Shown: positions 44,539 through 55,724, counted from the first letter of the stretch. The stretch is DNA of 64,000 nucleotides from an uncultured Verrucomicrobiae bacterium (GCA_963813025.1 CAWEXO010000011.1:69810-133809); one strand, 5' to 3'. The notes: generated by a model not told the origin, from the letters alone. Made by a program: numbers and translations.

Positions 44539-45750
44539 ATGAACTCCTACCAAAAGGCGCTTGAGTGGTTGTATGGCACTCAGGACCGGGGGGTGAAACT
44601 CGGTCTCGAGAATGTCCGGCGGTTACTCGCTCGTTTTGACAACCCCCACCGTCGGCTCCGTTGCGCCCATGTCACCGGCACTAATGGCAAAGGCTCCGTC
44701 TGCGCCATGATGGCGTCCATTTGCCGAGCTCAAGGTCTGCGGACCGGATTGTTCACCTCTCCTCATTTGGTTCGCTTTAATGAGCGGATCAACATCGACG
44801 GCCACGCCATCACCGATGATTTCGTCGTTGAGGGGCTGGAGCAAATCCGTGGGGCGATCGAACCCGAGACGCATCCCACCTTCTTTGAAATCACCACCGT
44901 CCTGGCCTTCAACTTCTTTGTCCGAGAGGGGTGTGACCTTGTCGTGCTGGAGACCGGACTGGGTGGACGACTTGATGCGACAAATGTCGTCTCGCCTTTG
45001 GTCACCGTTCTGACTTCGATCGATCTGGACCATCAAAAACTGCTGGGAAACACGCACGCGGAGATCGCCCGGGAAAAAGCCGGTATCATTAAGCCGGGAA
45101 TTCCCGTCGTCTCCGCGCCGCAGTGTCCCGAGGTGGAGAGCATCATTCGAGAGGTCGCGCTTCGACACTCCGCGCCGGTGAGATTTATCAGGAAGCCCGT
45201 CGAAGAACTGACGATAGCTCTCGCAGGATCTCACCAACGGCTGAACGCCGCGATCGCTATTGGCGCGCTTGAATCGGCTCAAGTTGTCCTCTCGGACGGC
45301 GCGGTCCGTCAGGGTTTAGCGACAGTCCACTGGCCCGGCCGTTTCCAATGCATCGATGCAAACCTGGTCCTCGACGGCGCCCACAACCCATCAGCCATTG
45401 CTCAACTGATTCAGACCTGGGAAGAACATTTCGGCCCGGTGAAGCCGGCGATTCTTTTTGGCGCACTTCGTGACAAAGCGATCAAGGAAATGCTGCTTCT
45501 CCTGAAGCCTCTGGCCGCCGAGTTGGCGGCAGTCCCGGTCAATAGCCGCCGGGCCGCTTCTCCGCAGGAGATCCAAGCCCTGGCAGGACCGGACGTGGAT
45601 CTTCGATCCTTTTCCTCCGTACCGGCTGCTCTCGCCGAGCTGCGGTCTCGCCACGAAATGATTCTGGCAACGGGTTCTCTTTTCCTCGTCGGGGAACTTC
45701 TTGCGATATTTGAGCCAGCTTCGGGAAATTATCAGCCGAGTTTACAATAA
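44539..45750 (+). CDS. folC: bifunctional folylpolyglutamate synthase/dihydrofolate synthase
   Basis: VTGTNGKGSV, ETGLGGRLDATN and DGAHNP motifs. Confidence 0.9.
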   Translation: MNSYQKALEWLYGTQDRGVKLGLENVRRLLARFDNPHRRLRCAHVTGTNGKGSVCAMMASICRAQGLRTGLFTSPHLVRFNERINIDGHAITDDFVVEGLEQIRGAIEPETHPTFFEITTVLAFNFFVREGCDLVVLETGLGGRLDATNVVSPLVTVLTSIDLDHQKLLGNTHAEIAREKAGIIKPGIPVVSAPQCPEVESIIREVALRHSAPVRFIRKPVEELTIALAGSHQRLNAAIAIGALESAQVVLSDGAVRQGLATVHWPGRFQCIDANLVLDGAHNPSAIAQLIQTWEEHFGPVKPAILFGALRDKAIKEMLLLLKPLAAELAAVPVNSRRAASPQEIQALAGPDVDLRSFSSVPAALAELRSRHEMILATGSLFLVGELLAIFEPASGNYQPSLQ

Positions 45751-45761
45751 CATTTGCATAG

Positions 45762-46130
45762 ATGGTTACTATTTGTTTGATTGAGGGAATGGTCGGCCGT
45801 CACCAGATCCTGCGTCCGGAGTTGCAGGCTTATCTCTGTCATTCCGGTAGTCAGCCCGGCCAGACTTGTAGTTTTGTGCTCGCCGCGCCACCGCGGAGCC
45901 GAACCATCCCTTACAGTCATCTCCTGGTTATCGATTCCCTGGGCGATCGCTTGATCACCGTGCGGTATTCGTTTGCCGACGTCGAAGTTTCTCTCGGGCG
46001 CGACTTTTCCGGTAAACGCCAGTTTCTGGATGATCTGGCCAGTTTCCGGGTGGCTCTTGTGCGGGAAGGACCACAGCTGCGTCTCCGCATCGTGGCGGAG
46101 CCATTCGTCGATAAATCGGTCGAATTCTAA
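45762..46130 (+). CDS. hypothetical protein (first ORF of the Rep/T4CP island)
   Basis: A 122-aa ORF with no motif recognised. Confidence 0.35.
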   Translation: MVTICLIEGMVGRHQILRPELQAYLCHSGSQPGQTCSFVLAAPPRSRTIPYSHLLVIDSLGDRLITVRYSFADVEVSLGRDFSGKRQFLDDLASFRVALVREGPQLRLRIVAEPFVDKSVEF

Positions 46131-46168
46131 ACCGCGTTTTTGGGCAAAGAAGATGCGAAGCCGTCAAT

Positions 46169-46720
46169 TTACGGCGAAGCGCTCGACCTCTGGCGAATTC
46201 CCCAGCGATTCATAATGGCGTTATTCAATGCGCGCCGGATGACGGGATTTTTTGCACAGACAAAGAATTGCTTCCACGGCGAGAGCGCCTCCAAAGCATC
46301 GAATTTCCGTGCTAAATCCAACAGCTGATCCATAACGTCTTCCGCGGTCGGGCTCAATATCCCGCGCAGTTCGGGAAGAGATTCGCGGGTCGATTCCGCG
46401 ATTTGCAGGCAAAAGGCAATCAGCTTCGCGGTGCTGATCACACTCAAGTATCCAGGCCGGCCCATTTGTGCGGCACTAAAAAGACGCGCGAAATTATCCA
46501 TTGAGATAACGCTGACCTCCCACTTGTCGCCGGCATCCGCGAACGCAAACGGGAATCGTGCATTGGCCAGATAATCACTGAGGCTCACTTCGACTTGCGG
46601 ATCCGGCGGCTCCGCGAAATTATAGGTATGCTCGGGCAAGATCGACCGGATATCCAGCAGTTCGTCCGCGGTCAGATCACGCAAGCCTGGGACGTTTGTC
46701 CGACGGTCTTGATCATTCAT
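46169..46720 (-). CDS. hypothetical protein, paralog of 47537-47977
   Basis: The ATG at 46720 (MNDQD...) is preferred, since the track start at 46894 overlaps rep. The C-terminus RRALNNAIMNRWG resembles REAVTNAVVNRWG of the other ORF. Confidence 0.45.
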   Translation of the reverse strand: MNDQDRRTNVPGLRDLTADELLDIRSILPEHTYNFAEPPDPQVEVSLSDYLANARFPFAFADAGDKWEVSVISMDNFARLFSAAQMGRPGYLSVISTAKLIAFCLQIAESTRESLPELRGILSPTAEDVMDQLLDLARKFDALEALSPWKQFFVCAKNPVIRRALNNAIMNRWGIRQRSSASP

Positions 46721-46736
46721 CCCAGTACCGCGGGAC

Positions 46737-47471
46737 TCAGGCGCTCGGCTTTGATCCGTTTGCGCGAGCTTTTTTCTTCTTTTCCTTGATCTCGAAAGCC
46801 AGCGACAAGACCCGTCGATACTTGGCTTGGCCAACCGCAACCAACCGGATGCCCAGATCAGTTTTCTTGTTGATCTCCTGGAGAGCCCGATCAATCGCCC
46901 GCTGCTTGAGATTCGGCCAATGAACCAGGCATCTTTCGCTGACTACGTTGCCCTCGGCGTCCCTGACTTCGTCAACACCCAGGATCTTCCGAATCTGAGG
47001 AATCGAAATCCGTTTCAGCCCGACGTGCCGCCAGCGCCACGCCCATTCGTAGAGGCGAATGGAATATTGGCTGGCCAATTTCACGCTGGCTCTTTCCGAA
47101 TCGACCTTCTGGTGCGCTTTCAGACGCTCGAAATGCGGCAAGAGACCCGGATCGACATGCAGGAACATCTTCTTATCGACCATCACGATCGAACTCAACC
47201 AGCGGGCAAACAACACCGAGTTTTGCGGGTCGTTGTTATGCAAAACGAGCCGGTGATAGGTCAGGAGCTTCAGGGCCGCCGGTTCGAGCTTGAGATCGGT
47301 CCATTCGAAACTGATCAATCCCGGTTTCAAACGATCAACGATACTCATGACAATCGCCCGCTCGTCTGGACTGAGTTTATAATAAGCCTCGATCAGGTCG
47401 TCGCCGAAACCGAGTTGCTCGGCCGATTCGGTTGAGGGCAACGTACCGAAAACTTTGTTGTATTTACGCAC
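46737..47471 (-). CDS. Rep_3-type (RepA/RepB winged-helix) replication initiator
   Basis: SQYSIRLYEWAWRW...KRISIPQIRKILGV...NLKQRAIDRALQEINKKTDLGI...RRVLSLAFEI matches the plasmid initiator pattern. Confidence 0.7.
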   Translation of the reverse strand: MRKYNKVFGTLPSTESAEQLGFGDDLIEAYYKLSPDERAIVMSIVDRLKPGLISFEWTDLKLEPAALKLLTYHRLVLHNNDPQNSVLFARWLSSIVMVDKKMFLHVDPGLLPHFERLKAHQKVDSERASVKLASQYSIRLYEWAWRWRHVGLKRISIPQIRKILGVDEVRDAEGNVVSERCLVHWPNLKQRAIDRALQEINKKTDLGIRLVAVGQAKYRRVLSLAFEIKEKKKKARANGSKPSA

Positions 47472-47536
47472 TTTACTTTCTCTGGATTAGAGTGTTACAA
47501 CATTCTATACATTTTTTATTTTTAGAGAAGACAAAA

Positions 47537-47977
47537 ATGGTTAGCACCAAAGAAAGCCGCGCGACGACGACAACCGAAGCTACCCAGTGGTCATTTTCCG
47601 CTGATGGAAAACCACTCGGTCTGGATGAGTTCCTTGATAGCTACCGCGAGCAAGGGACTTTTTTCGAAGGCAAGGAGCAATGGCTGAAAGGAGTGAATAA
47701 GGTTACCTGGGAAAATTTCTTTTTGGTTTGCACTGAAGAATTGGACGACCTTTCTCAGCGAGCCGCTCGGATGCTTATCCTTTATTGCCTGGAAATCGTC
47801 GAACAGGTGGTCTCGCGAATGAAAGGGCCGGTTTCGGCGGCGCGGATTGCCGAGGCAATGAAGCGGGAATTTGATGAGCAATACGACAACCCGGTGTACC
47901 AATTCCAGTGGGCAATGCGCCACGACGCCGTGCGCGAAGCGGTCACCAATGCGGTCGTCAACCGCTGGGGACGTTGA
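47537..47977 (+). CDS. hypothetical protein, paralog of 46169-46720
   Basis: ATG at 47537 preceded by an AT-rich spacer. It shares the CL(Q/E)I segment and the N-A-(I/V)-(M/V)-N-R-W-G C-terminus. Confidence 0.45.
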   Translation: MVSTKESRATTTTEATQWSFSADGKPLGLDEFLDSYREQGTFFEGKEQWLKGVNKVTWENFFLVCTEELDDLSQRAARMLILYCLEIVEQVVSRMKGPVSAARIAEAMKREFDEQYDNPVYQFQWAMRHDAVREAVTNAVVNRWGR

Positions 47978-48146
47978 GGAACCCATCAGTCGCATCGGGT
48001 AGTACACCTTCAGCGAACCTACGGGGCAGCGCGCATAACTCTTTCTAGATTGTGTAGAGCTTATTGGGTTTGCGTTGCCAACCCAAAATCCTCATAGCTT
48101 CTTCGCCTGTCTATTGTGACTTTGCAGTCGCGAATAACAATGTTCC

Positions 48147-48176
48147 TTGACAAATATTATTACATTTATTTATATA
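48147..48176 (+). promoter_or_regulatory. sigma-70-like promoter directly abutting the T4CP start codon
   Basis: TTGACA (48147-48152), a 17-18 nt AT-rich spacer, then TTATAT/TATATA (48170-48176). The ATG is at 48184 with no SD. Confidence 0.35.
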
Positions 48177-48183
48177 GTTCCTA

Positions 48184-50010
48184 ATGATCGCCGAAACTGC
48201 TGCGCTTGGTTCACCGTCCCGGGTCCAGTCCCTGCCACAGTTCGATCGACTGAGCTGCCGAAATGCGCAGGGCGCTTTGATTCGTTTGTCTTTCGAACCG
48301 GCGTCAGCTCCGATCGTTCTCGAGCAGCATGGCGATTTCCGAATCTGCGCTGCGCTTTTGGAGACGAGCGGGCAATCGGCCGGCAGCGCCGGTTGTCTGT
48401 TCAGCGTGCGGATTTATCAGGGCAAAACCTGCATTCACGCTCGCACCTGGAGCACCGCCGAAATCTCGCTGGAAGAAGCGCGCCAAACTGCGCGAAGCTG
48501 GCTGCGGCAGCGCCGGCTGGGAGACCGAGTGGCGTTCGTCCTTTCGCCGGCATTGCTTTTACTTTGGTTTTGCTGCCTGGCTGCCGCCTGGTTTCTCTTT
48601 CCGCTCATCGCGTGGTCGGCTTTGTTGCCCCTGGCGGTTTCTTCTCCTCTCGCCTGGACTTTTGCGCCGCCGCGACGGCTACCGCAGACCTCAGCCCGCC
48701 TCGCCGGGCTCGCCTGGGATCGCAATGACTTTTGCCGCGGCTGGCTCATCACCGGCGATACTGGGTCCGGCAAGACCTTTGCCGTTAATGCGTTGTTACA
48801 TTCTGTTTTTCAGCACGAACCCGATTGGGGCGGTCTCTGCTGCGATGAAAAAGGGGTTTATCACGAAATCCTGGCCGCCATGGTGCGCCACTACGGCCGT
48901 CAAAATGATCTGCTCCTTTTGCAGACCCGGCCAGACCAGGCGCGGGATAATTGGGCACCCCCCGCTCGATACAATCTGCTGTCGGATGACACGATTCCCC
49001 CCTCCACCTACGCTACTGTGATCGTCGATACCGCGTCTGCTTTAAACACCGGGAAAGAGGATCAAGGCTTTTTTAAGACCCAAGCCCACTCTTATATCGG
49101 CCGCGGTATCCAGCTCTTCCGCCTTCTCGGCCTGCGCCCGACTATGCATCATCTGCTGGAAATGCTGCAGTACCAGCCGGTCCTGAAAGCGATGTTACAG
49201 GAACTGGAACCAAAAAAGAACGCGGGCGATCCCGACGCTAGCGATTGTCATGACCATTTCCTCAATGGTTTTCTGCGCCAGCCAGCCGAGCAACTGGGCG
49301 GGGTTATCTCGACGATTTATAACTACTTGAATTACTTCACCAATCCGGATATTGCCGAGGTATTCGGCACCGAGGAAAACACGTTTGATTTTAAAGCTCT
49401 GGATCGAGGAGCGATCATCTGCTTATCGATGCCGCAGAAGTATCAGACTGAGCGCCGCTACGTCACCACCATCCTGAAGCTTCTTTTTTACACACACGCC
49501 CTGCGTCGATTCGATCCACGCGACAACCGGCAGCGGAGCCGCGAACAGGACAACCTTCTGATCTGTTGGCAGGACGAGGCCCAACGATTCGTTACTGACT
49601 CGGACGGCAATGTCGATGTGCTTCGGCAGAGCAATGCGACCACCGTTATGGCCACACAATCAAAGATCTCCTTTTTTCCAGTGCTGGGTGGCCGGGAGAA
49701 AGCCGAAGTAACGATCCTTAACCTACGTAACCGGATAATCTTCAAGGCAGCTGACCGCGTTTGTGCAGAAAGCTCGGCTGATTTCATTGGCCGGCACCTG
49801 TTCTGGAAAAAATCGTACACGCGCGCGAAAGGCGGGATCAGCACGACCCGTTCTCGCGAAGAAGAATATCTGGTTAAACCATACCAGATAATGAGCCTTC
49901 CCAAGTTCACGGCGATTATCAAGCATTGTGAACGCCCTTTTGTGCGGCGCCGGATCCATCCATTGGATCCGCAGGGCCGCACGCCTCGCTGGTACTCGCG
50001 CTGGGGATAG
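48184..50010 (+). CDS. type IV secretion coupling protein-like ATPase (TraD/TraG/VirD4 family)
   Basis: A soluble N-terminal ~110 aa, then two TM helices, Walker A ITGDTGSGKT and Walker B-like LLICWQDEAQRF. Confidence 0.7.
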   Translation: MIAETAALGSPSRVQSLPQFDRLSCRNAQGALIRLSFEPASAPIVLEQHGDFRICAALLETSGQSAGSAGCLFSVRIYQGKTCIHARTWSTAEISLEEARQTARSWLRQRRLGDRVAFVLSPALLLLWFCCLAAAWFLFPLIAWSALLPLAVSSPLAWTFAPPRRLPQTSARLAGLAWDRNDFCRGWLITGDTGSGKTFAVNALLHSVFQHEPDWGGLCCDEKGVYHEILAAMVRHYGRQNDLLLLQTRPDQARDNWAPPARYNLLSDDTIPPSTYATVIVDTASALNTGKEDQGFFKTQAHSYIGRGIQLFRLLGLRPTMHHLLEMLQYQPVLKAMLQELEPKKNAGDPDASDCHDHFLNGFLRQPAEQLGGVISTIYNYLNYFTNPDIAEVFGTEENTFDFKALDRGAIICLSMPQKYQTERRYVTTILKLLFYTHALRRFDPRDNRQRSREQDNLLICWQDEAQRFVTDSDGNVDVLRQSNATTVMATQSKISFFPVLGGREKAEVTILNLRNRIIFKAADRVCAESSADFIGRHLFWKKSYTRAKGGISTTRSREEEYLVKPYQIMSLPKFTAIIKHCERPFVRRRIHPLDPQGRTPRWYSRWG

Positions 50011-50017
50011 TGGCCAC

Positions 50018-50066
50018 ATTTCACGTTTCAAGTTTCGCGTTTCAAGTTTCGCGTTTCAAGTTTCGC
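50018..50066. repeat. tandem heptamer array GTTTCNN (7 units; equivalently three 14-bp units gtttcaagtttcgc)
   Basis: atttcac gtttcaa gtttcgc gtttcaa gtttcgc gtttcaa gtttcgc, starting 8 nt after the T4CP stop. Confidence 0.8.
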
Positions 50067-50218
50067 GTCGCTCGTTCTTGCACCATCGGTGCTATCAGGA
50101 GGCTCGAATTCACTGCTCCGGTCAGTTCTCTCCGCCGTCTCGGCTGAGGTCTTTTCCCTTTGCAAACCTGGAGGGCACGCGAAGTTTTTCCGGCCTAGTC
50201 GTTACCATGGAGGAACAT

Positions 50219-50841
50219 ATGTTACAAAGAAGTGCCTTAGCTGTAATGGTAGCCTTTCAGTCGGCTGCCGCATTTGCCGGAGAGCCGGTTACGTCATCGA
50301 AAGAAGTCGTGCCCCCACCGCCTCCGCCGGCCCCAACCTCCTACTTTCGTGCCAACGAGTGGAGCTTGGGCGCATTCGCAACTTATAATGCTACGTGGGA
50401 TAAGAATCGCCGCGTAACGGGTTCACACGCCTGGGGCGGCGGTGTCAGTGTCAGCTATTTTCCGTGGCTCTATGCGGGCTTTCGCCTCAGGGAAGCGTGG
50501 TGAATGCGAAACCGGAAGATAACACGGTCGGAGATGTAACCGGGGATTTCGTTTTACGCTATCCTCTCGATTTGATAAATCCAAAATTGCACCTTGCGCC
50601 CTATGCGTATGCTGGCGTGGGCGGCGTCTTCGTTTCCGAGGACAGCTTCGGGACCTTCGTCAGCGATAGATTTCGCCGCAACAATAATACGGACGATCGG
50701 GTCTTAGGAGATTTCGGCGCCGGTCTCGAGTACCGTTTCACACCTCATATCGGGCTTTTTGGCGAGTGCGAGTATGATGTTGTCGACGGTCCCAAAAACA
50801 ACTACTTACAAACGAACTTTGGGTTGAAGTACGCGTTTTAA
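50219..50841 (+). pseudogene. outer-membrane beta-barrel protein, apparent frameshift near 50490
   Basis: SD ggagga plus ATG at 50219 and signal peptide MLQRSALAVMVAFQSAAAFA. The reading continues in another frame (50464-50841) and ends with the OMP signature NFGLKYAF. Confidence 0.55.
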
Positions 50842-50970: not shown

Positions 50971-52110
50971 ATGACGGCAAATGTCCCACCTCATCCTCGC
51001 CTGGACAATCGCCGGCTGGTTTCCGTCGCTCTGACCCTCGGGATTCTCCTCGCCGCTTTTTTCATTCTCGGTAAAGGCAAAAGTTTCTTCATCCCATTGG
51101 CAATCGCTTTCATTGCCGTTTACCTCGTCGAAATACTGGCTCGGGCGATCCGCCAGGTGCGGATCGGTCACGCGCACCTGACAACCTTTCTTTCCCTCGT
51201 CCTGGCGTTCGGGGTCATCTTTGGCCTCGGCTACTGCTTCGTTCTGATCTTGGCAAATAATGCCGCACACGTTGCGGGAGCGGCGCCACGTTACCAGGCG
51301 CGCTTCCAGCATTTACAAGCAGCGCTATTTGCCACAGCAGGTCTCGAGGAGCCAGCGGAAATACGGCAGCTCATTCGAACACTCGATCTCCGAACCGTCT
51401 TTACGACCGTCGCCGCCGGCATCGCTGGTCTTCTGGAAAACATCAGTCTGGTGGCGGTTTACGGATTTTTTATCCTTCTCGAACTTCGCTTTGCCGGGAC
51501 GAAACTAAACGCTCTTCTTCCCGATCCCGAGAGACGCACGAAAGCGCTCGCCCTGATGCAACGGATCGACCGCGATATTCATACCTATCTCGGGGTGAAA
51601 ACGGTCGTCAGTTTTACAAGCGCGATCCTGGCTTATGCCCTAATGCGTTTTGTCGGCCTCGACTTTGCCGAATTCTGGGCTCTGCTGGTCTTTGTCCTGC
51701 ATTTCATTCCAACTTTTGGAGTGATTGTGGCGGTTTTCCTGCCGACCGCTCTTGCTCTCGTGCAATTCGACTATTCTGGCCCAGTCCTCATCATTGGCAT
51801 CGGACTCACCGCCATCGCTCAGGTTATGGGAAATATCATTGAACCCAACATTATGGGAGAAAGTTTGAATCTTAGTCCACTGGCCGTTATCATGGCTCTG
51901 ATATTTTGGGGAACACTTTGGGGGATTACCGGTGCTTTCCTTTGTGTTCCTCTCACCGTAATTCTTGTCATTATCCTCTCGAATTTTCGGACCACTCGCT
52001 GGATCGCGATTCTCCTCTCGAAGACCGGTTCGTTGCAATTCGCTCCAGCCGACGAGCAACGAGTAATTCGCCGGAGCGCTCCCCGGGTCAGCGCAGTCAA
52101 TAAAGACTGA
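50971..52110 (+). CDS. AI-2E family transporter (PerM/UPF0118)
   Basis: Multi-TM protein with IIEPNIMGESLNLSPLAVIMALIFWGTLWGITGAFLCVPLT. Confidence 0.85.
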   Translation: MTANVPPHPRLDNRRLVSVALTLGILLAAFFILGKGKSFFIPLAIAFIAVYLVEILARAIRQVRIGHAHLTTFLSLVLAFGVIFGLGYCFVLILANNAAHVAGAAPRYQARFQHLQAALFATAGLEEPAEIRQLIRTLDLRTVFTTVAAGIAGLLENISLVAVYGFFILLELRFAGTKLNALLPDPERRTKALALMQRIDRDIHTYLGVKTVVSFTSAILAYALMRFVGLDFAEFWALLVFVLHFIPTFGVIVAVFLPTALALVQFDYSGPVLIIGIGLTAIAQVMGNIIEPNIMGESLNLSPLAVIMALIFWGTLWGITGAFLCVPLTVILVIILSNFRTTRWIAILLSKTGSLQFAPADEQRVIRRSAPRVSAVNKD

Positions 52111-52638: not shown

Positions 52639-53172
52639 ATGAAAGCTCAAATCTTAGGGGTTCTTTTCTGTATGTCGATCAACCCGCTCTTTGCAGCCGA
52701 TTTTCGCCTGCAAAGCCCAAGCTTGCGGGACGGCGGTTCTGTACCGGTTGAGCATCTTTTGACAAAGTGCGGCGGCCGCAACCTTTCTCCGGCTTTAGCT
52801 TGGTCCGGCGCCCCGGCGGGAACAAAATCCTTCGCGGTGACTTTCTTCGACCCCGATGCTCCTGGCGGCCGTGGCTTTTGGCATTGGGCTATCTTTGATC
52901 TGGCCCCGAAGATGGTGCGCCTTCCCGCCGGAGCCGGTGCGAGTACCGCCGGAATCCCCGGAGCAAAGCAAGCACGCAACGATTACGGATCGATCGGCTA
53001 TGGCGGACCATGCCCGCCCGCCGGAGCCACTCACCGGTACGTTCTTACCGTGACGGCGCTCGACGTGGAAGATCTGCCCATATCGCCGAACGCGAGCGCC
53101 GGACAGGTGGCCGCGCTGGTGTCCAAGCATGCTCTGGGCAAGGCTACGATCACCGTCCGCTATGGCCGCTAA
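52639..53172 (+). CDS. YbhB/YbcL-family PEBP (Raf kinase inhibitor-like) protein
   Basis: Signal peptide, NLSPALAWSGAP, DPDAP, FWHWAIFDL and HRYVLTVTALD. Confidence 0.85.
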   Translation: MKAQILGVLFCMSINPLFAADFRLQSPSLRDGGSVPVEHLLTKCGGRNLSPALAWSGAPAGTKSFAVTFFDPDAPGGRGFWHWAIFDLAPKMVRLPAGAGASTAGIPGAKQARNDYGSIGYGGPCPPAGATHRYVLTVTALDVEDLPISPNASAGQVAALVSKHALGKATITVRYGR

Positions 53173-54514
53173 GACAGCTCCATCGCGGAAGCCGGCCGCT
53201 GCCCACTGGCAGAGTTTTCAAGGCACACTCGACGATTGCGAGTTGTTCGACGTATTGCAAATGGCCTGCCTGGCCCAACAAACCGGACGGCTATTCGTCA
53301 GGCACCAACGGCGCCGGGGAATGGTTGTTCTCGAAGGCGGCAGTATCATCGACGCTCAAGCCGGCTATCTCTCGGGCGGAGACGCTCTGGTCGAGATTTT
53401 CTGCTGGCGAAGCGGCCGATTTCGCTTCACCAGAACCCAAACCTCTGAGCCCGGGCGAATAACGATCACCAACTCCTGGGAGCATGCGTTGATGGAAGCC
53501 ATCCGGAAACGGGACGAAAAATTGCCTTGGGCCGAGCGACCGCGTTTTGCCGGGGGATTAGCTCGTCGCCTGAGCCCGGCGGCATTGCAGAAAATCCGCC
53601 GAGCCAACCAGCGTGCGGTTATTCGGCATCTTTTGTTCCGGCTCGGAGTCCTGGTGGTTTGCGCCGGTCTTCTTCTGGGCGGCATTCACTTGTACCGGCA
53701 CCGGGCAGCGTTGCTGTCGTCGTGGTGGAACAGCTCTTTTCTTGCGCAGAAGAATAACAGATTATTCGGGTGGAAAAAACGGGAACCCCGCAGTGTCGCC
53801 ATACCAGCCGGCAGCTTTATCGACCAACGCGGCCGCGAAGTGACGTTGCCTGCCTTTGAAATAGATGATGTCGAGGTCCCAATTTGGCAATACCAAGAAT
53901 TCCTCGATGCAATCGGCCCGAGTCATGCCTTCGATCATCCCGACCAACCTTCTTCCAAGACACACAGCAATCCGGAGTGGGTCGCGTACTCACAGGCCGC
54001 GTTCCAATTCAAAATGTTCCACGGCACGAAACTGACGCCGAACCATCCAGCCGCCTATCTCGACTGGTTTGACGCCTACGCTTTCGCTGCCTGGCGCGGT
54101 CGCCGACTTTCTTCGGAGGAAGAATGGGAGAAAGCGGCCCAAGGTGTCCCGGACCTTCGATCGCGCGAACTTGCCCAAGATCCGGCGCTAGCATCGTCCG
54201 GCCGGCCGACGCAGCTCGGCGGTCCCGAGCCGGTCGGATCGAATCCAAACGATCGAAGCTCCATGGGAGTCTATGACCTGGCCGGAAACCTCTCTGAATG
54301 GTCTGGCACTCTGGACGCGGACGGTTCACCGATCGTTCGCGGAGGTAATTTCGAAAATGGTGGGGGCGACATTACTGAACGCGTCCTCCATCTTTCGCCA
54401 TTTCATCGGGATGGCCGAATCGGTTTTCGAACGGTAAAACCAGCTTCCGGCTTGGCCGGTCAGGCGCCGTCGGCCAAACCAATCTCCCCGGCCGAGGGAG
54501 CAAATCGCAAGTAG
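53162..54514 (+). CDS. DUF4388 (PATAN-like) - TM - FGE-sulfatase (SUMF1-like) domain protein
   Basis: N-terminal GTLDDCELFDVLQMACLAQQTGRL...GGDALVEIFCWRSGRFRF, one TM helix, and C-terminal YLDWFDAYAFAAWRGRRLSSEEEWEKAA...GVYDLAGNLSEWS...RGGNF. The ATG at 53162 is preferred. Confidence 0.7.
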   Translation: MAAKTAPSRKPAAAHWQSFQGTLDDCELFDVLQMACLAQQTGRLFVRHQRRRGMVVLEGGSIIDAQAGYLSGGDALVEIFCWRSGRFRFTRTQTSEPGRITITNSWEHALMEAIRKRDEKLPWAERPRFAGGLARRLSPAALQKIRRANQRAVIRHLLFRLGVLVVCAGLLLGGIHLYRHRAALLSSWWNSSFLAQKNNRLFGWKKREPRSVAIPAGSFIDQRGREVTLPAFEIDDVEVPIWQYQEFLDAIGPSHAFDHPDQPSSKTHSNPEWVAYSQAAFQFKMFHGTKLTPNHPAAYLDWFDAYAFAAWRGRRLSSEEEWEKAAQGVPDLRSRELAQDPALASSGRPTQLGGPEPVGSNPNDRSSMGVYDLAGNLSEWSGTLDADGSPIVRGGNFENGGGDITERVLHLSPFHRDGRIGFRTVKPASGLAGQAPSAKPISPAEGANRK

Positions 54515-54597
54515 TGCAAAGCCGCCTTGAATACGTTCAATCATTTTGTTAGGAAATGAGCAAAACGCAATTCCTCGGCTGAGTATAACTGCCACAC

Positions 54598-55223
54598 ATG
54601 TCGTTCATCAATTTTGTTACCGGTGAGGTAGAGTTCAAAATCGTCTATTACGGCTGCGCCCTTGGCGGAAAGACAAGCAGCCTGGGTTACATCCATGAAC
54701 GGGTCGACGCGAATGACCGCGGCGACCTGCTGCTGTTGCCAACTCAGAACGATCGAACCTTGTTCTTTGATTTCTTACCGATTGATGGAGGTAGCGTTAA
54801 AGGCTTCAAGGTTCGCTTCAAGCTTTGGACCGTACCGGGTCAGGTGATGTACAATGCGACCCGTCAGTTGGTGCTGCGCGGTGCGGACGGGATCGTTTTC
54901 GTCGCCGATCACAGTGGGAACGCATGGAAGCCAATATCGAAAGTTTGCGGAACCTGGAAGAGAATCTGGCTGAACTCAATTCCTCCGTCAGCCAGATCGC
55001 GTGGATCCTCTTTTACAACAAGAGAGATCTGCCGATGGAGACGATCGCCCCGGTCGAAGCTTTGGATCTGTTGCTCTTGACTGGGCGTCAACGGGTTCCG
55101 CGATTTGCCGGCAGTTGCCTTGATGGTACCAACGTATTCAACGCGCTGAATGACGTGAGTCAGCGCGTCCTGCGCGAGTTTTTAGTCAAAGACGATCTCG
55201 AAAATTACGAGGCTTACCGCTAA
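54598..55223 (+). pseudogene. mglA: MglA-like Ras-superfamily GTPase with a 1-nt deletion frameshift near 54909
   Basis: MSFINFVTGEVEFKIVYYGCALGGKT...DRTLFFDFLP...LWTVPGQVMY...GIVFVAD, then in the next frame SQWERMEANIESLRNL...YNKRDLP. Adding one T after gat at 54907-54909 restores VADSQWERMEAN. Confidence 0.7.
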
Positions 55224-55277
55224 CGAGGCGTACCTCAGACCGGCGAGATTTACTGGACGAAAGGGGAAGTACGATTC

Positions 55278-55724
55278 GTGAAAGAAAAAAAGTTGCTTAA
55301 AAAAGGTGATTCATTCACATCCTGCCAGTCGTTAAGGACTCTGGACATGATGCTCACCCCGAACTGGCGCACCGCGTGCACTTCCCGATCAGGCTTCACT
55401 CTCGTGGAGTTGCTGGTTGTTCTGTCCATTGTCGCGGCGATGGCAGGGTTAATCAGCTTTGCCGTCGGTCGAACACTCACAAAACAGGACGAAAAGATGT
55501 GTCTGAACAATATGACGATGATCGAAGCGGCCAAGGATGAGTATGCTCGCGATCATGTCGGGCAGCCGATCGACCCGGTGGAGTTCGCGCGTTACTTCAA
55601 ATTCTCCATCCCGCGGTGCCCCGACAATCCGCAGGAAGACTACGAAAACCTCTACAATCTCAACGCGCCGGTCGCCTGCCGAGTCCATCAGAACAATAGT
55701 GCGCTGCTCAATTCTGGAAAGTGA
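55278..55724 (+). CDS. prepilin-type N-terminal cleavage/methylation domain protein (pseudopilin-like)
   Basis: SG/FTLVELLVVLSIVAAMAGLI motif. Alternative ATG starts at 55347 and 55350 would give a 16-aa leader. Confidence 0.7.
   Translation: MKEKKLLKKGDSFTSCQSLRTLDMMLTPNWRTACTSRSGFTLVELLVVLSIVAAMAGLISFAVGRTLTKQDEKMCLNNMTMIEAAKDEYARDHVGQPIDPVEFARYFKFSIPRCPDNPQEDYENLYNLNAPVACRVHQNNSALLNSGK

Follow-up and report, generated by a model that had tools for sequence, protein, structure and literature searches.

The subject of this study is a block of five open reading frames (ORFs) at positions 45751–50066 of a 64-kb window on contig C11 of genome G000, a 4.4-Mb metagenome-assembled genome (MAG) of 16 contigs from the Chthoniobacterales (phylum Verrucomicrobiota). 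By the window we mean this whole 64-kb stretch, and positions given without a contig name are counted from its first letter. The block, referred to below as the module, comprises orf122, parL, rep, parR and the gene of a type IV coupling protein (T4CP) (Table 1). A first-pass annotation of the window had predicted these five ORFs, all of which are present, and had read them as an island, either the decayed remnant of a plasmid or of an integrative and conjugative element (ICE), or a minimal mobile element served by helper functions in trans. Here we show that the module is inherited vertically and fixed in the chromosome of one bacterial family, and we describe the type IV secretion system (T4SS) genes with which it shares a locus. 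We found no description of this locus in the literature.

Genes of the module

The prediction that rep encodes a Rep_3-type initiator was borne out by both Pfam Rep_3 domains, Rep3_N (winged helix 1, WH1, PF01051; 25.5 bits, cut-off 22.4) and Rep3_C (winged helix 2, WH2, PF21205; 26.6 bits, cut-off 21.1). The protein also matches NCBIfam RepM (E=1e-16), has the R6K pi protein (E=0.002) and RepE as its best matches among PDB sequences, and shares 28–32% identity, over ~90% of its length, with the annotated initiators of 816 plasmid records. Distant relatives of Rep are found in integrase contexts or, at 36–41% identity, in defence islands with McrBC, Shedu, TIR-NACHT and restriction-modification genes.

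The ATPase of 608 residues described in the first pass as TraD/VirD4-like matches TrwB_AAD_bind (PF10412; 40.4 bits, cut-off 20.5) and TraG-D_C (PF12696; 24.3 bits, cut-off 22). Two profiles had been named for verification; PF01051 is matched above its cut-off, as given above, whereas the T4CP reaches 18.1 bits with PF02534, just under the cut-off of 20.1, and also scores under the NCBIfam cut-offs. The Walker A (GDTGSGKT) and Walker B (CWQDEA) motifs can be read in the sequence, and the nucleotide-binding domain is preceded by an N-terminal extension of ~110 residues and a hydrophobic segment. The best plasmid matches (29–31% identical) lie on Verrucomicrobia plasmids, and plasmid T4CPs reach at most ~31% identity. 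Upstream of the gene is a promoter-like element, TTGACA-N18-TATATA, which was missed by a strict consensus scan and seen by alignment.

The two small proteins flanking rep had been called paralogous, and parR and parL do align (BLASTP E=2e-8, 25% identity), with the motifs W, NF, YCLEI and NRWG in common, the last of these at the C-terminus. The longest ORF of parL extends to 46894; its orthologues begin at the ATG at 46720. From its position we infer that parL forms an operon with rep. It is missing at the folC locus in genus g4, and the copy at this first locus carries an internal stop in G002. When a profile of the parR/parL family was searched against 1.84 billion representative proteins, only 88 clusters were recovered, and none of 300 other Verrucomicrobiota genomes contained a match. 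Confident AlphaFold2 models were obtained for parR (pLDDT 82) and for orf122 (pLDDT 81), neither of which gave a PDB fold match at E<=0.001, and a profile search of PDB sequences was negative as well. Judged by sequence profiles and predicted models, parR and parL are thus a new lineage-restricted protein family with no detectable structural relatives. A third, distant member (E=7e-13 to the profile) is present at G000 C12:142374-142760 (L100), among ORFs with no Pfam matches. The orf122 gene was found in 5/5 family genomes and in 0/55 genomes of 15 other families, and its product is 49–61% identical between genera.

The module is fixed in the chromosome of one family

We fetched the locus from 15 relatives; these represent 11 genera of one Chthoniobacterales family of uncultured soil bacteria. 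The gene order CPBP-comF-accD-folC-orf122-(parL)-rep-parR-T4CP is the same in 15/15 of them. Gene presence was scored in 24 genomes of the family and in 16 genomes from 15 other families of the order. Rep was detected in 22/24 and 0/16 of these, respectively, and the T4CP in 23/24 (60–85% identical) and 0/16. A wider survey of 43 family genomes, 10 of them high-quality, found Rep as exactly one copy in 37, including 10/10 of the high-quality genomes and all 11 genera. Six genomes had no Rep, and in the five that were checked (all except G057) folC was either missing as well (four genomes) or cut by a contig end (the fifth). Since the Rep-less genomes that were checked also have no usable folC, the family has no known example of a true empty site. 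Five outgroup families have an intact CPBP-comF-accD-folC block with no module gene after it, and a simple folC-nadC empty site was not seen in the outgroups.

The composition of the module is native. Its GC content is 0.541 against 0.558 +/- 0.018 for the genome, and 77% of windows drawn at random from the genome have a larger tetranucleotide deviation. The first pass had correctly noted AT-rich spacers, the rep/parR spacer (47472-47536) having 24.6% GC and the spacer before the T4CP gene (47978-48183) 43%, compared to 56% for the genome. Correct as well was the observation that 45751-50066 contains no integrase, relaxase, mating-pair formation (MPF) or partition gene; neither flanking direct repeats nor att-like repeats were found there.

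Against the sister genome G001, which served as the reference partner, the five ORFs have ratios of nonsynonymous to synonymous substitution rates (dN/dS) of 0.056 (parR), 0.064 (rep), 0.125 (parL), 0.133 (T4CP) and 0.145 (orf122), with dS values like those of the flanks, and rep and parR have the lowest dN/dS of the neighbourhood. Across the 11 genera, Rep orthologues are 75–93% identical and parR orthologues 69–95%, which makes both proteins more conserved than accD (70–76% outside the genus) and folC (52–57%). Moreover, a tree of rep, parR and T4CP contains the same supported clades as a tree of CPBP, comF, accD and folC.

The family-wide synteny, the absence from outgroups, the native composition and the agreement of the trees together indicate that the gene set was acquired or arose a single time, at the root of the family, and has been passed on vertically since. 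The module is vertically inherited, chromosomally fixed and under purifying selection. What the first-pass annotation had named as the pattern that would speak against an island, the same gene set at the same locus in the relatives together with native composition, is what was found: every relative whose contig covers the folC region has the set in the same place, and the composition in G000 is native. The k-mer analysis it proposed shows no foreign signature, the dN/dS values leave no sign of decay, and the concordance of module and flank trees contradicts a mobile minimal element.

A type IV secretion locus to the right of the module

The T4CP had been described as an orphan. This holds within the 4.3 kb only, because MPF genes are located 20-30 kb to the right of the T4CP, past the right edge of the window, where a single minus-strand T4SS cluster occupies G000 C11:137.7-149.9 kb. 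The supposed helper functions in trans are therefore encoded in cis, in the same conserved locus. Identities of the T4SS genes were taken chiefly from the intact copy in G008 (Table 1). The VirB4-type ATPase was found in 22/24 family genomes (72–89% identical) and in 0/16 genomes of the other families; its apparent absence from G000 by PF03135 was a false negative, the gene being caught with PF19044 and TIGR models. The T4SS gene order is common to G001, G007, G008, G012 and G015, and dN/dS of these genes is 0.03–0.22 (G000 versus G001).

The layout of the locus varies among genera. T4SS, AAA+ ATPase, OMP, T4CP, parR, rep, orf122 and folC are contiguous in ~17 kb in G012 (genus g4), and in G008 and G015 the stretch from folC to nadC is one locus of ~30 kb. 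G000 and G001 have two arms, parted by ~11 kb of housekeeping genes. The T4CP and a VirB4-type ATPase, its putative partner, thus occupy one conserved locus. G012 and G008, whose loci are contiguous, have no relaxase gene there that could partner the T4CP, and G000 has relaxase fragments only, on other contigs.

Between the two arms of G000 lies a pilus-like block (53129-56779) with genes for a PATAN-FGE fusion, a small GTPase, a pseudopilin and a PilT/DotB-like ATPase. The full-length PATAN-FGE architecture occurs in family genomes only, other families matching the FGE domain alone, and orthologues of the PilT-like protein (57–62% identical) were likewise found within the family only. The PilT-like gene directly adjoins the T4CP gene in genera g6, g8 and g9, the two being convergent. 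At locus 1, genus g4 retains neither parL nor the PATAN-FGE/PilT block. A second operon is present in g4 (14/19 genomes) and in g2; it encodes rep'-parL'-VirB9-like'-PATAN-FGE'-GTPase'-pilin'-PilT' on one strand, with a divergent parR'. That two paralogous loci each combine Rep, parL/R and pilus-like genes argues for a shared function over chance adjacency, and we infer from this gene content that Rep may be functionally part of the secretion machinery.

Table 1. Features of the module, its flanks and the associated secretion genes. Positions are those of the window unless a contig or locus is named.
Feature	Position	Strand	Description
folC	44539-45750	+	Pfam Mur_ligase_M/C; last gene of the order-wide block CPBP-comF-accD-folC; left border of the family-specific locus
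orf122	45762-46130	+	122-residue beta-rich small protein, family-restricted
parL	46169-46720	−	helical parR paralogue; 16 nt downstream of rep, same strand
rep	46737-47471	−	Rep_3-family winged-helix protein, WH1+WH2, GTG start
rep/parR control region	47472-47536	.	divergent spacer, 24.6% GC
parR	47537-47977	+	146 residues, all-helical
T4CP promoter-like element	48147-48183	+	TTGACA-N18-TATATA; ends right before the ATG; position conserved between genera (alignment)
T4CP	48184-50010	+	608-residue VirD4/TraD/DotL-type coupling ATPase
OMP beta-barrel gene, small	50219-50841	+	split between two frames; adjoins T4CP in genera g1, g4 and g11
AI-2E-family permease	50971-52110	+	travels with the locus
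DUF4388 (PATAN)-TM-FGE-sulfatase fusion	53129-54514	+	
MglA/Arf-like small GTPase	54598-55223	+	split between two frames; intact paralogue L080:13976-14620 matches Pfam Arf
Pseudopilin	55278-55724	+	N-terminal methylation motif
PilT/DotB-like hexameric ATPase	55721-56779	+	
TrbC/VirB2-like pilin	T4SS operon		27.0 bits, cut-off 27.9
Small membrane protein	T4SS operon, G008		
VirB4/TraC-type ATPase, 949 residues			PF19044 35 bits above cut-off; TIGR02746 E=2e-20; TIGR00929 E=1e-18
TrbJ-like coiled-coil protein (VirB5-like)	T4SS operon		weak match
Polytopic protein, ~500 residues	T4SS operon		no profile match; VirB6-like by position and topology only
TraE/VirB8-like protein	T4SS operon		weak match
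CagX/VirB9-like protein	T4SS operon		weak match
TrbI/VirB10	T4SS operon		40.6 bits, above cut-off
218-residue protein	T4SS operon, G008		
ClpB-D2-like AAA+ ATPase	L108:1635-2822 (G008); G000 C11:137.7-138.5 kb		86 bits; single module, conserved operon member
Second operon	L080 (G012 C2:629-636 kb), L081, L083		
Split genes	50219-50841 and 54598-55223; G000 C11:135-141.6 kb		genes broken across frames

The ClpB-D2-like AAA+ ATPase is an unusual T4SS accessory and is reminiscent of the type VI protein ClpV. The AI-2E-family permease adjoins the PATAN-FGE block in g6, g9 and g7 (G015, G007) and lies ~3 kb past the block in g8 (G008, G016). An IS630-like transposase (G000 C11:142368-143432) is inserted between the VirB6-like gene and a gene for a 264-residue T4SS protein, and is not present in G001.

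Many genes of G000 and G001 are broken into two frames, among them those for the OMP, the MglA-like GTPase, the VirB9-like protein, the AAA+ ATPase and an HscA-like protein. The first pass had placed the module between folC and an OMP gene, which is right as to the neighbours, with the qualification that the OMP gene is itself one of these split genes. Their number, together with a 'completeness' of 80% in an assembly of only 16 contigs, suggests indel errors of a long-read MAG and not pseudogenes, and the split frames in G000 and G001 are probably long-read indel errors rather than decay.

The rep/parR control region

The divergent spacer between rep and parR is held at a length of 64–71 bp in 36 genomes, across which it contains the invariant blocks TTTACTTT, TGTTA and GAAG, and the GTG start of rep is kept in 36/36 orthologues. 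In genus g1 the spacer includes an imperfect 20-bp palindrome, TAGAGTGTTACAACATTCTA, that recurs in some of the other genera and not in all. Inverted repeats of the type TGTTAT/ATAACA were observed in three promoter regions of several genomes, namely the rep/parR spacer (47472-47536), the T4CP promoter (48100-48183) and the region upstream of virB2-like genes (L107-L110); they may represent a shared operator. An Rfam scan of the module's spacers for non-coding RNA found none above noise.

Replication signals

The 16 genomes compared (the window and the 15 relatives) have no conserved iteron array between folC and a point past the T4CP gene, and the fixed length of the rep-parR spacer leaves no room for iterons. 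We considered a 14-bp array at 50019-50068 as a candidate and rejected it, since its repeat type occurs genome-wide and it is missing in G001. A Tandem Repeats Finder (TRF) scan of G000 recovered tandem arrays of period 7 (n=132), period 9 (n=131) and period 14 (n=89), and short arrays of these periods also fill intergenic regions in relatives (for example L032 and L034).

GC skew shows no sign switch at the locus, the cumulative minimum of C11 being near 520 kb, ~400 kb off. The idea that Rep might be the main chromosomal initiator was discarded because DnaA is present and the skew does not switch locally; likewise the T4CP was rejected as an FtsK substitute, FtsK being present in 23/24 family genomes. 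In G007 the Rep locus is on the main chromosome, within a 5.04-Mb contig. The dnaA gene of G000 (C13:171759-172241) is on a contig whose GC skew is monotonic, and the only V-shaped minimum is that of C11 at ~520 kb; dnaA is therefore probably not beside the origin. A genome-wide search for operator-like sites returned chance-level matches only, plus one tandem doublet near a tRNA gene. Here TGTAACACTTT occurs twice in tandem (G000 C11:543980-544005), just 3' of the tRNA gene and ~24 kb from the GC-skew minimum, and has a 9-10-mer in common with the rep operator. The doublet is probably due to chance and is kept as a candidate distant Rep site.

Discussion

We consider it fairly likely that the five ORFs make up the left arm of a ~30-kb family-specific T4SS locus, vertically inherited and chromosomally fixed beside folC, that derives from a domesticated plasmid or ICE and has retained Rep as a DNA-binding protein. 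Most likely, the common ancestor of the family would have captured a conjugative plasmid or ICE from which the locus descends. Domestication would have followed, with integrase, relaxase and iterons no longer seen in the locus and the other genes kept under purifying selection; with none of these three features, the locus looks like a domesticated T4SS. Its parts would be rep, parL, parR, orf122 and T4CP, usually the PilT/DotB-pseudopilin-GTPase-PATAN-FGE block, the AAA+ ATPase and the T4SS operon. The T4CP would serve this T4SS as substrate receptor and ATPase, and the substrate of the machine could be protein or DNA. Rep would no longer fire an origin and would instead bind the 64–71-bp divergent rep/parR control region in a sequence-specific manner, most likely as a regulator; it may also bind the similar TGTTAT/ATAACA repeats in the promoters of the T4CP and virB2-like genes, and parR and parL would be its lineage-specific partners. 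The closest mobile relative of the fixed locus is a conjugative element at G001 C1:252-272 kb (L078), in which T4CP' (49% identical), VirB4' (46%) and TraX are found side by side. These paralogues, the matches of the T4CP to Verrucomicrobia plasmids and the contexts of distant Rep relatives make a plasmid or ICE ancestor plausible, so that this part of the first-pass annotation stands while a present island or mobile state does not.

Several observations weigh against this account. The VirB2, VirB5, VirB8 and VirB9 assignments score under the curated cut-offs, and no profile at all matches the VirB6-like protein. The Rep-T4CP arm of G007 is more than 1 megabase from the T4SS arm, as measured on one contig, which indicates that physical linkage of the arms is not obligatory; including this genome, the two arms are not seen together in G007, G019, G023 and G011. 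In G000 the genes for the VirB9-like protein, AAA+ ATPase, GTPase and OMP are split or interrupted and an IS630 element sits in the operon, and all genomes compared are MAGs. As for the control region, the palindrome is clear in some genera only, and the TGTTAT/ATAACA recurrences are short and AT-rich. Rep is probably a regulator of the locus, and its extreme conservation is also what one would expect of a genuine initiator that must dock with the host replisome.

The machine might alternatively serve relaxase-independent export or exchange of DNA, with Rep opening or marking chromosomal DNA and the T4CP, the T4SS and the pilus-like parts pumping it out. A DNA-binding initiator is co-inherited with a T4CP and a T4SS in a locus with no relaxase, a pseudopilin and a PilT-like ATPase are adjacent, and comF is three genes upstream of the locus. 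Rep_3 proteins, however, are not nucleases, neither a nicking enzyme nor a transfer-origin repeat was seen; comF is part of an order-wide block older than the locus, and relaxase-less chromosomal T4SSs usually move proteins. DNA donation by a lone translocase, with no T4SS, has a precedent in the transjugation of Thermus thermophilus by the translocase TdtA, which acts with no relaxase (PMC5365140, PMC7767461). TdtA resembles the T4CP in being a membrane translocase-type ATPase that is relaxase-free and coupled to pilus or competence machinery; it differs in being FtsK/HerA-like and ICE-borne, with neither T4SS nor Rep (PMC5365140, PMC7767461). DNA transfer by the present system is hypothetical. 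On balance we hold DNA export to be unlikely. Its most specific form, in which the Rep_3 initiator replaced the relaxase as the DNA-processing partner of the T4SS and Rep, parR and parL mark or melt a chromosomal site and hand the DNA to the T4CP, strikes us as very doubtful.

It is quite unlikely that Rep still drives a functional replicon, initiating at a cryptic origin near the locus or in trans, be it a secondary or conditional origin or one for local amplification. Rep has kept both WH domains and is conserved like accD (dN/dS 0.064), which fits docking with DnaB, DnaA or chaperones, and dosage-limited initiators typically have a conserved GTG start and a tight control region, as seen here; the operator-like 9-mer doublet near the GC-skew minimum is a weak lead in the same direction. 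Against this stand the absence of an iteron array in 16 genomes, a spacer of 64–71 bp that is too small for one, the absence of a local skew inflection, the presence of DnaA, and the fact that the only nearby array (50019-50068) is of a genome-wide type and absent in G001.

That the module is a recent or still mobile island, whether a decayed plasmid or ICE remnant or a minimal element mobilised in trans, is highly improbable: its gene types are plasmid-derived, its spacers are AT-rich, the locus begins exactly at the end of the order-wide synteny and related T4CP and VirB4 genes lie on an ICE in G001, yet the module is at the same place in all 11 genera, is native in composition, has dN/dS of 0.06–0.15 with dS equal to that of the flanks, agrees with the flanks in its tree and has no integrase or att-like repeats. 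A defence against plasmids or conjugation, in which iteron plasmids entering the cell are handcuffed by the chromosomal Rep while the T4CP-like ATPase interferes with their transfer, is barely credible: distant Rep homologues (36–41% identical) do occur in defence-island contexts, but PADLOC gave no match beyond generic P-loop similarity, the universal single copy and very slow evolution are the opposite of typical defence genes, and the module is embedded in a T4SS locus.

To return to the domesticated secretion locus that we favour, its components have recognisable counterparts elsewhere. With the Rep_3 initiators (pi of R6K, RepE of F and RepM/RepA of Acinetobacter plasmids) Rep has in common WH1 and WH2, a compact AT-rich control region and, in some genera, a palindrome. 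Unlike these plasmid initiators it is chromosomal, single-copy and vertical across a family; it comes with neither iterons nor a recognisable origin, is as slow to evolve as accD and is flanked by two paralogues of a new family. The T4CP resembles VirD4, TrwB, TraD and DotL/IcmO in its TrwB_AAD_bind and TraG-D_C domains, Walker A and B motifs, hydrophobic N-terminal segment and MPF genes in the locus; it differs from known T4CPs in having no relaxase partner in the locus, in its ~110-residue N-terminal extension and strong divergence, and in lying directly beside a PilT/DotB-like ATPase in several genera.

Few lineages are known to have chromosomally fixed T4SSs, and those of the Rickettsiales (rvh) and Xanthomonadales (the bacteria-killing X-T4SS) are vertically inherited and have no relaxase. 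Like these, the present system is conjugation-derived, clade-wide and sometimes split in arms, and has kept its T4CP; in contrast to them, its locus adds a Rep_3 protein, three new small proteins, PATAN-FGE, a small GTPase, a pseudopilin and a ClpB-D2-like AAA+ ATPase. To our knowledge, none of the known chromosomally fixed T4SSs has a co-inherited, slow-evolving plasmid replication initiator. RctB, at ori2 of Vibrio chromosome 2, is a domesticated and conserved plasmid-type initiator, but it drives a separate replicon with iterons, whereas Rep here is on a DnaA-bearing main chromosome with no origin signature. Control of secretion genes by a plasmid initiator has a precedent in TrfA, which is reported to repress the type III secretion system of Pseudomonas aeruginosa (PMC12691604). 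TrfA and Rep would be alike as theta-type initiators that regulate secretion genes, a role we propose for Rep. They differ in that TrfA belongs to a different family, is carried on a plasmid and has kept its function in replication initiation.

Rep_3 and T4CP markers in MAGs can thus be core chromosomal genes, by which plasmid and ICE callers can be misled. The parR/parL proteins add a new small-protein family, and the locus as a whole is a composite T4SS, with a PilT/DotB-like ATPase, small GTPase, PATAN-FGE and AAA+ ATPase, in uncultured Chthoniobacterales that are recurrent in soil metagenomes. If the domestication we propose is true, the locus would clearly exemplify the exaptation of a Rep_3 protein by its host; and if Rep should indeed have taken the place of the relaxase, relaxase-independent DNA export or exchange would be fixed in a family of abundant soil bacteria.

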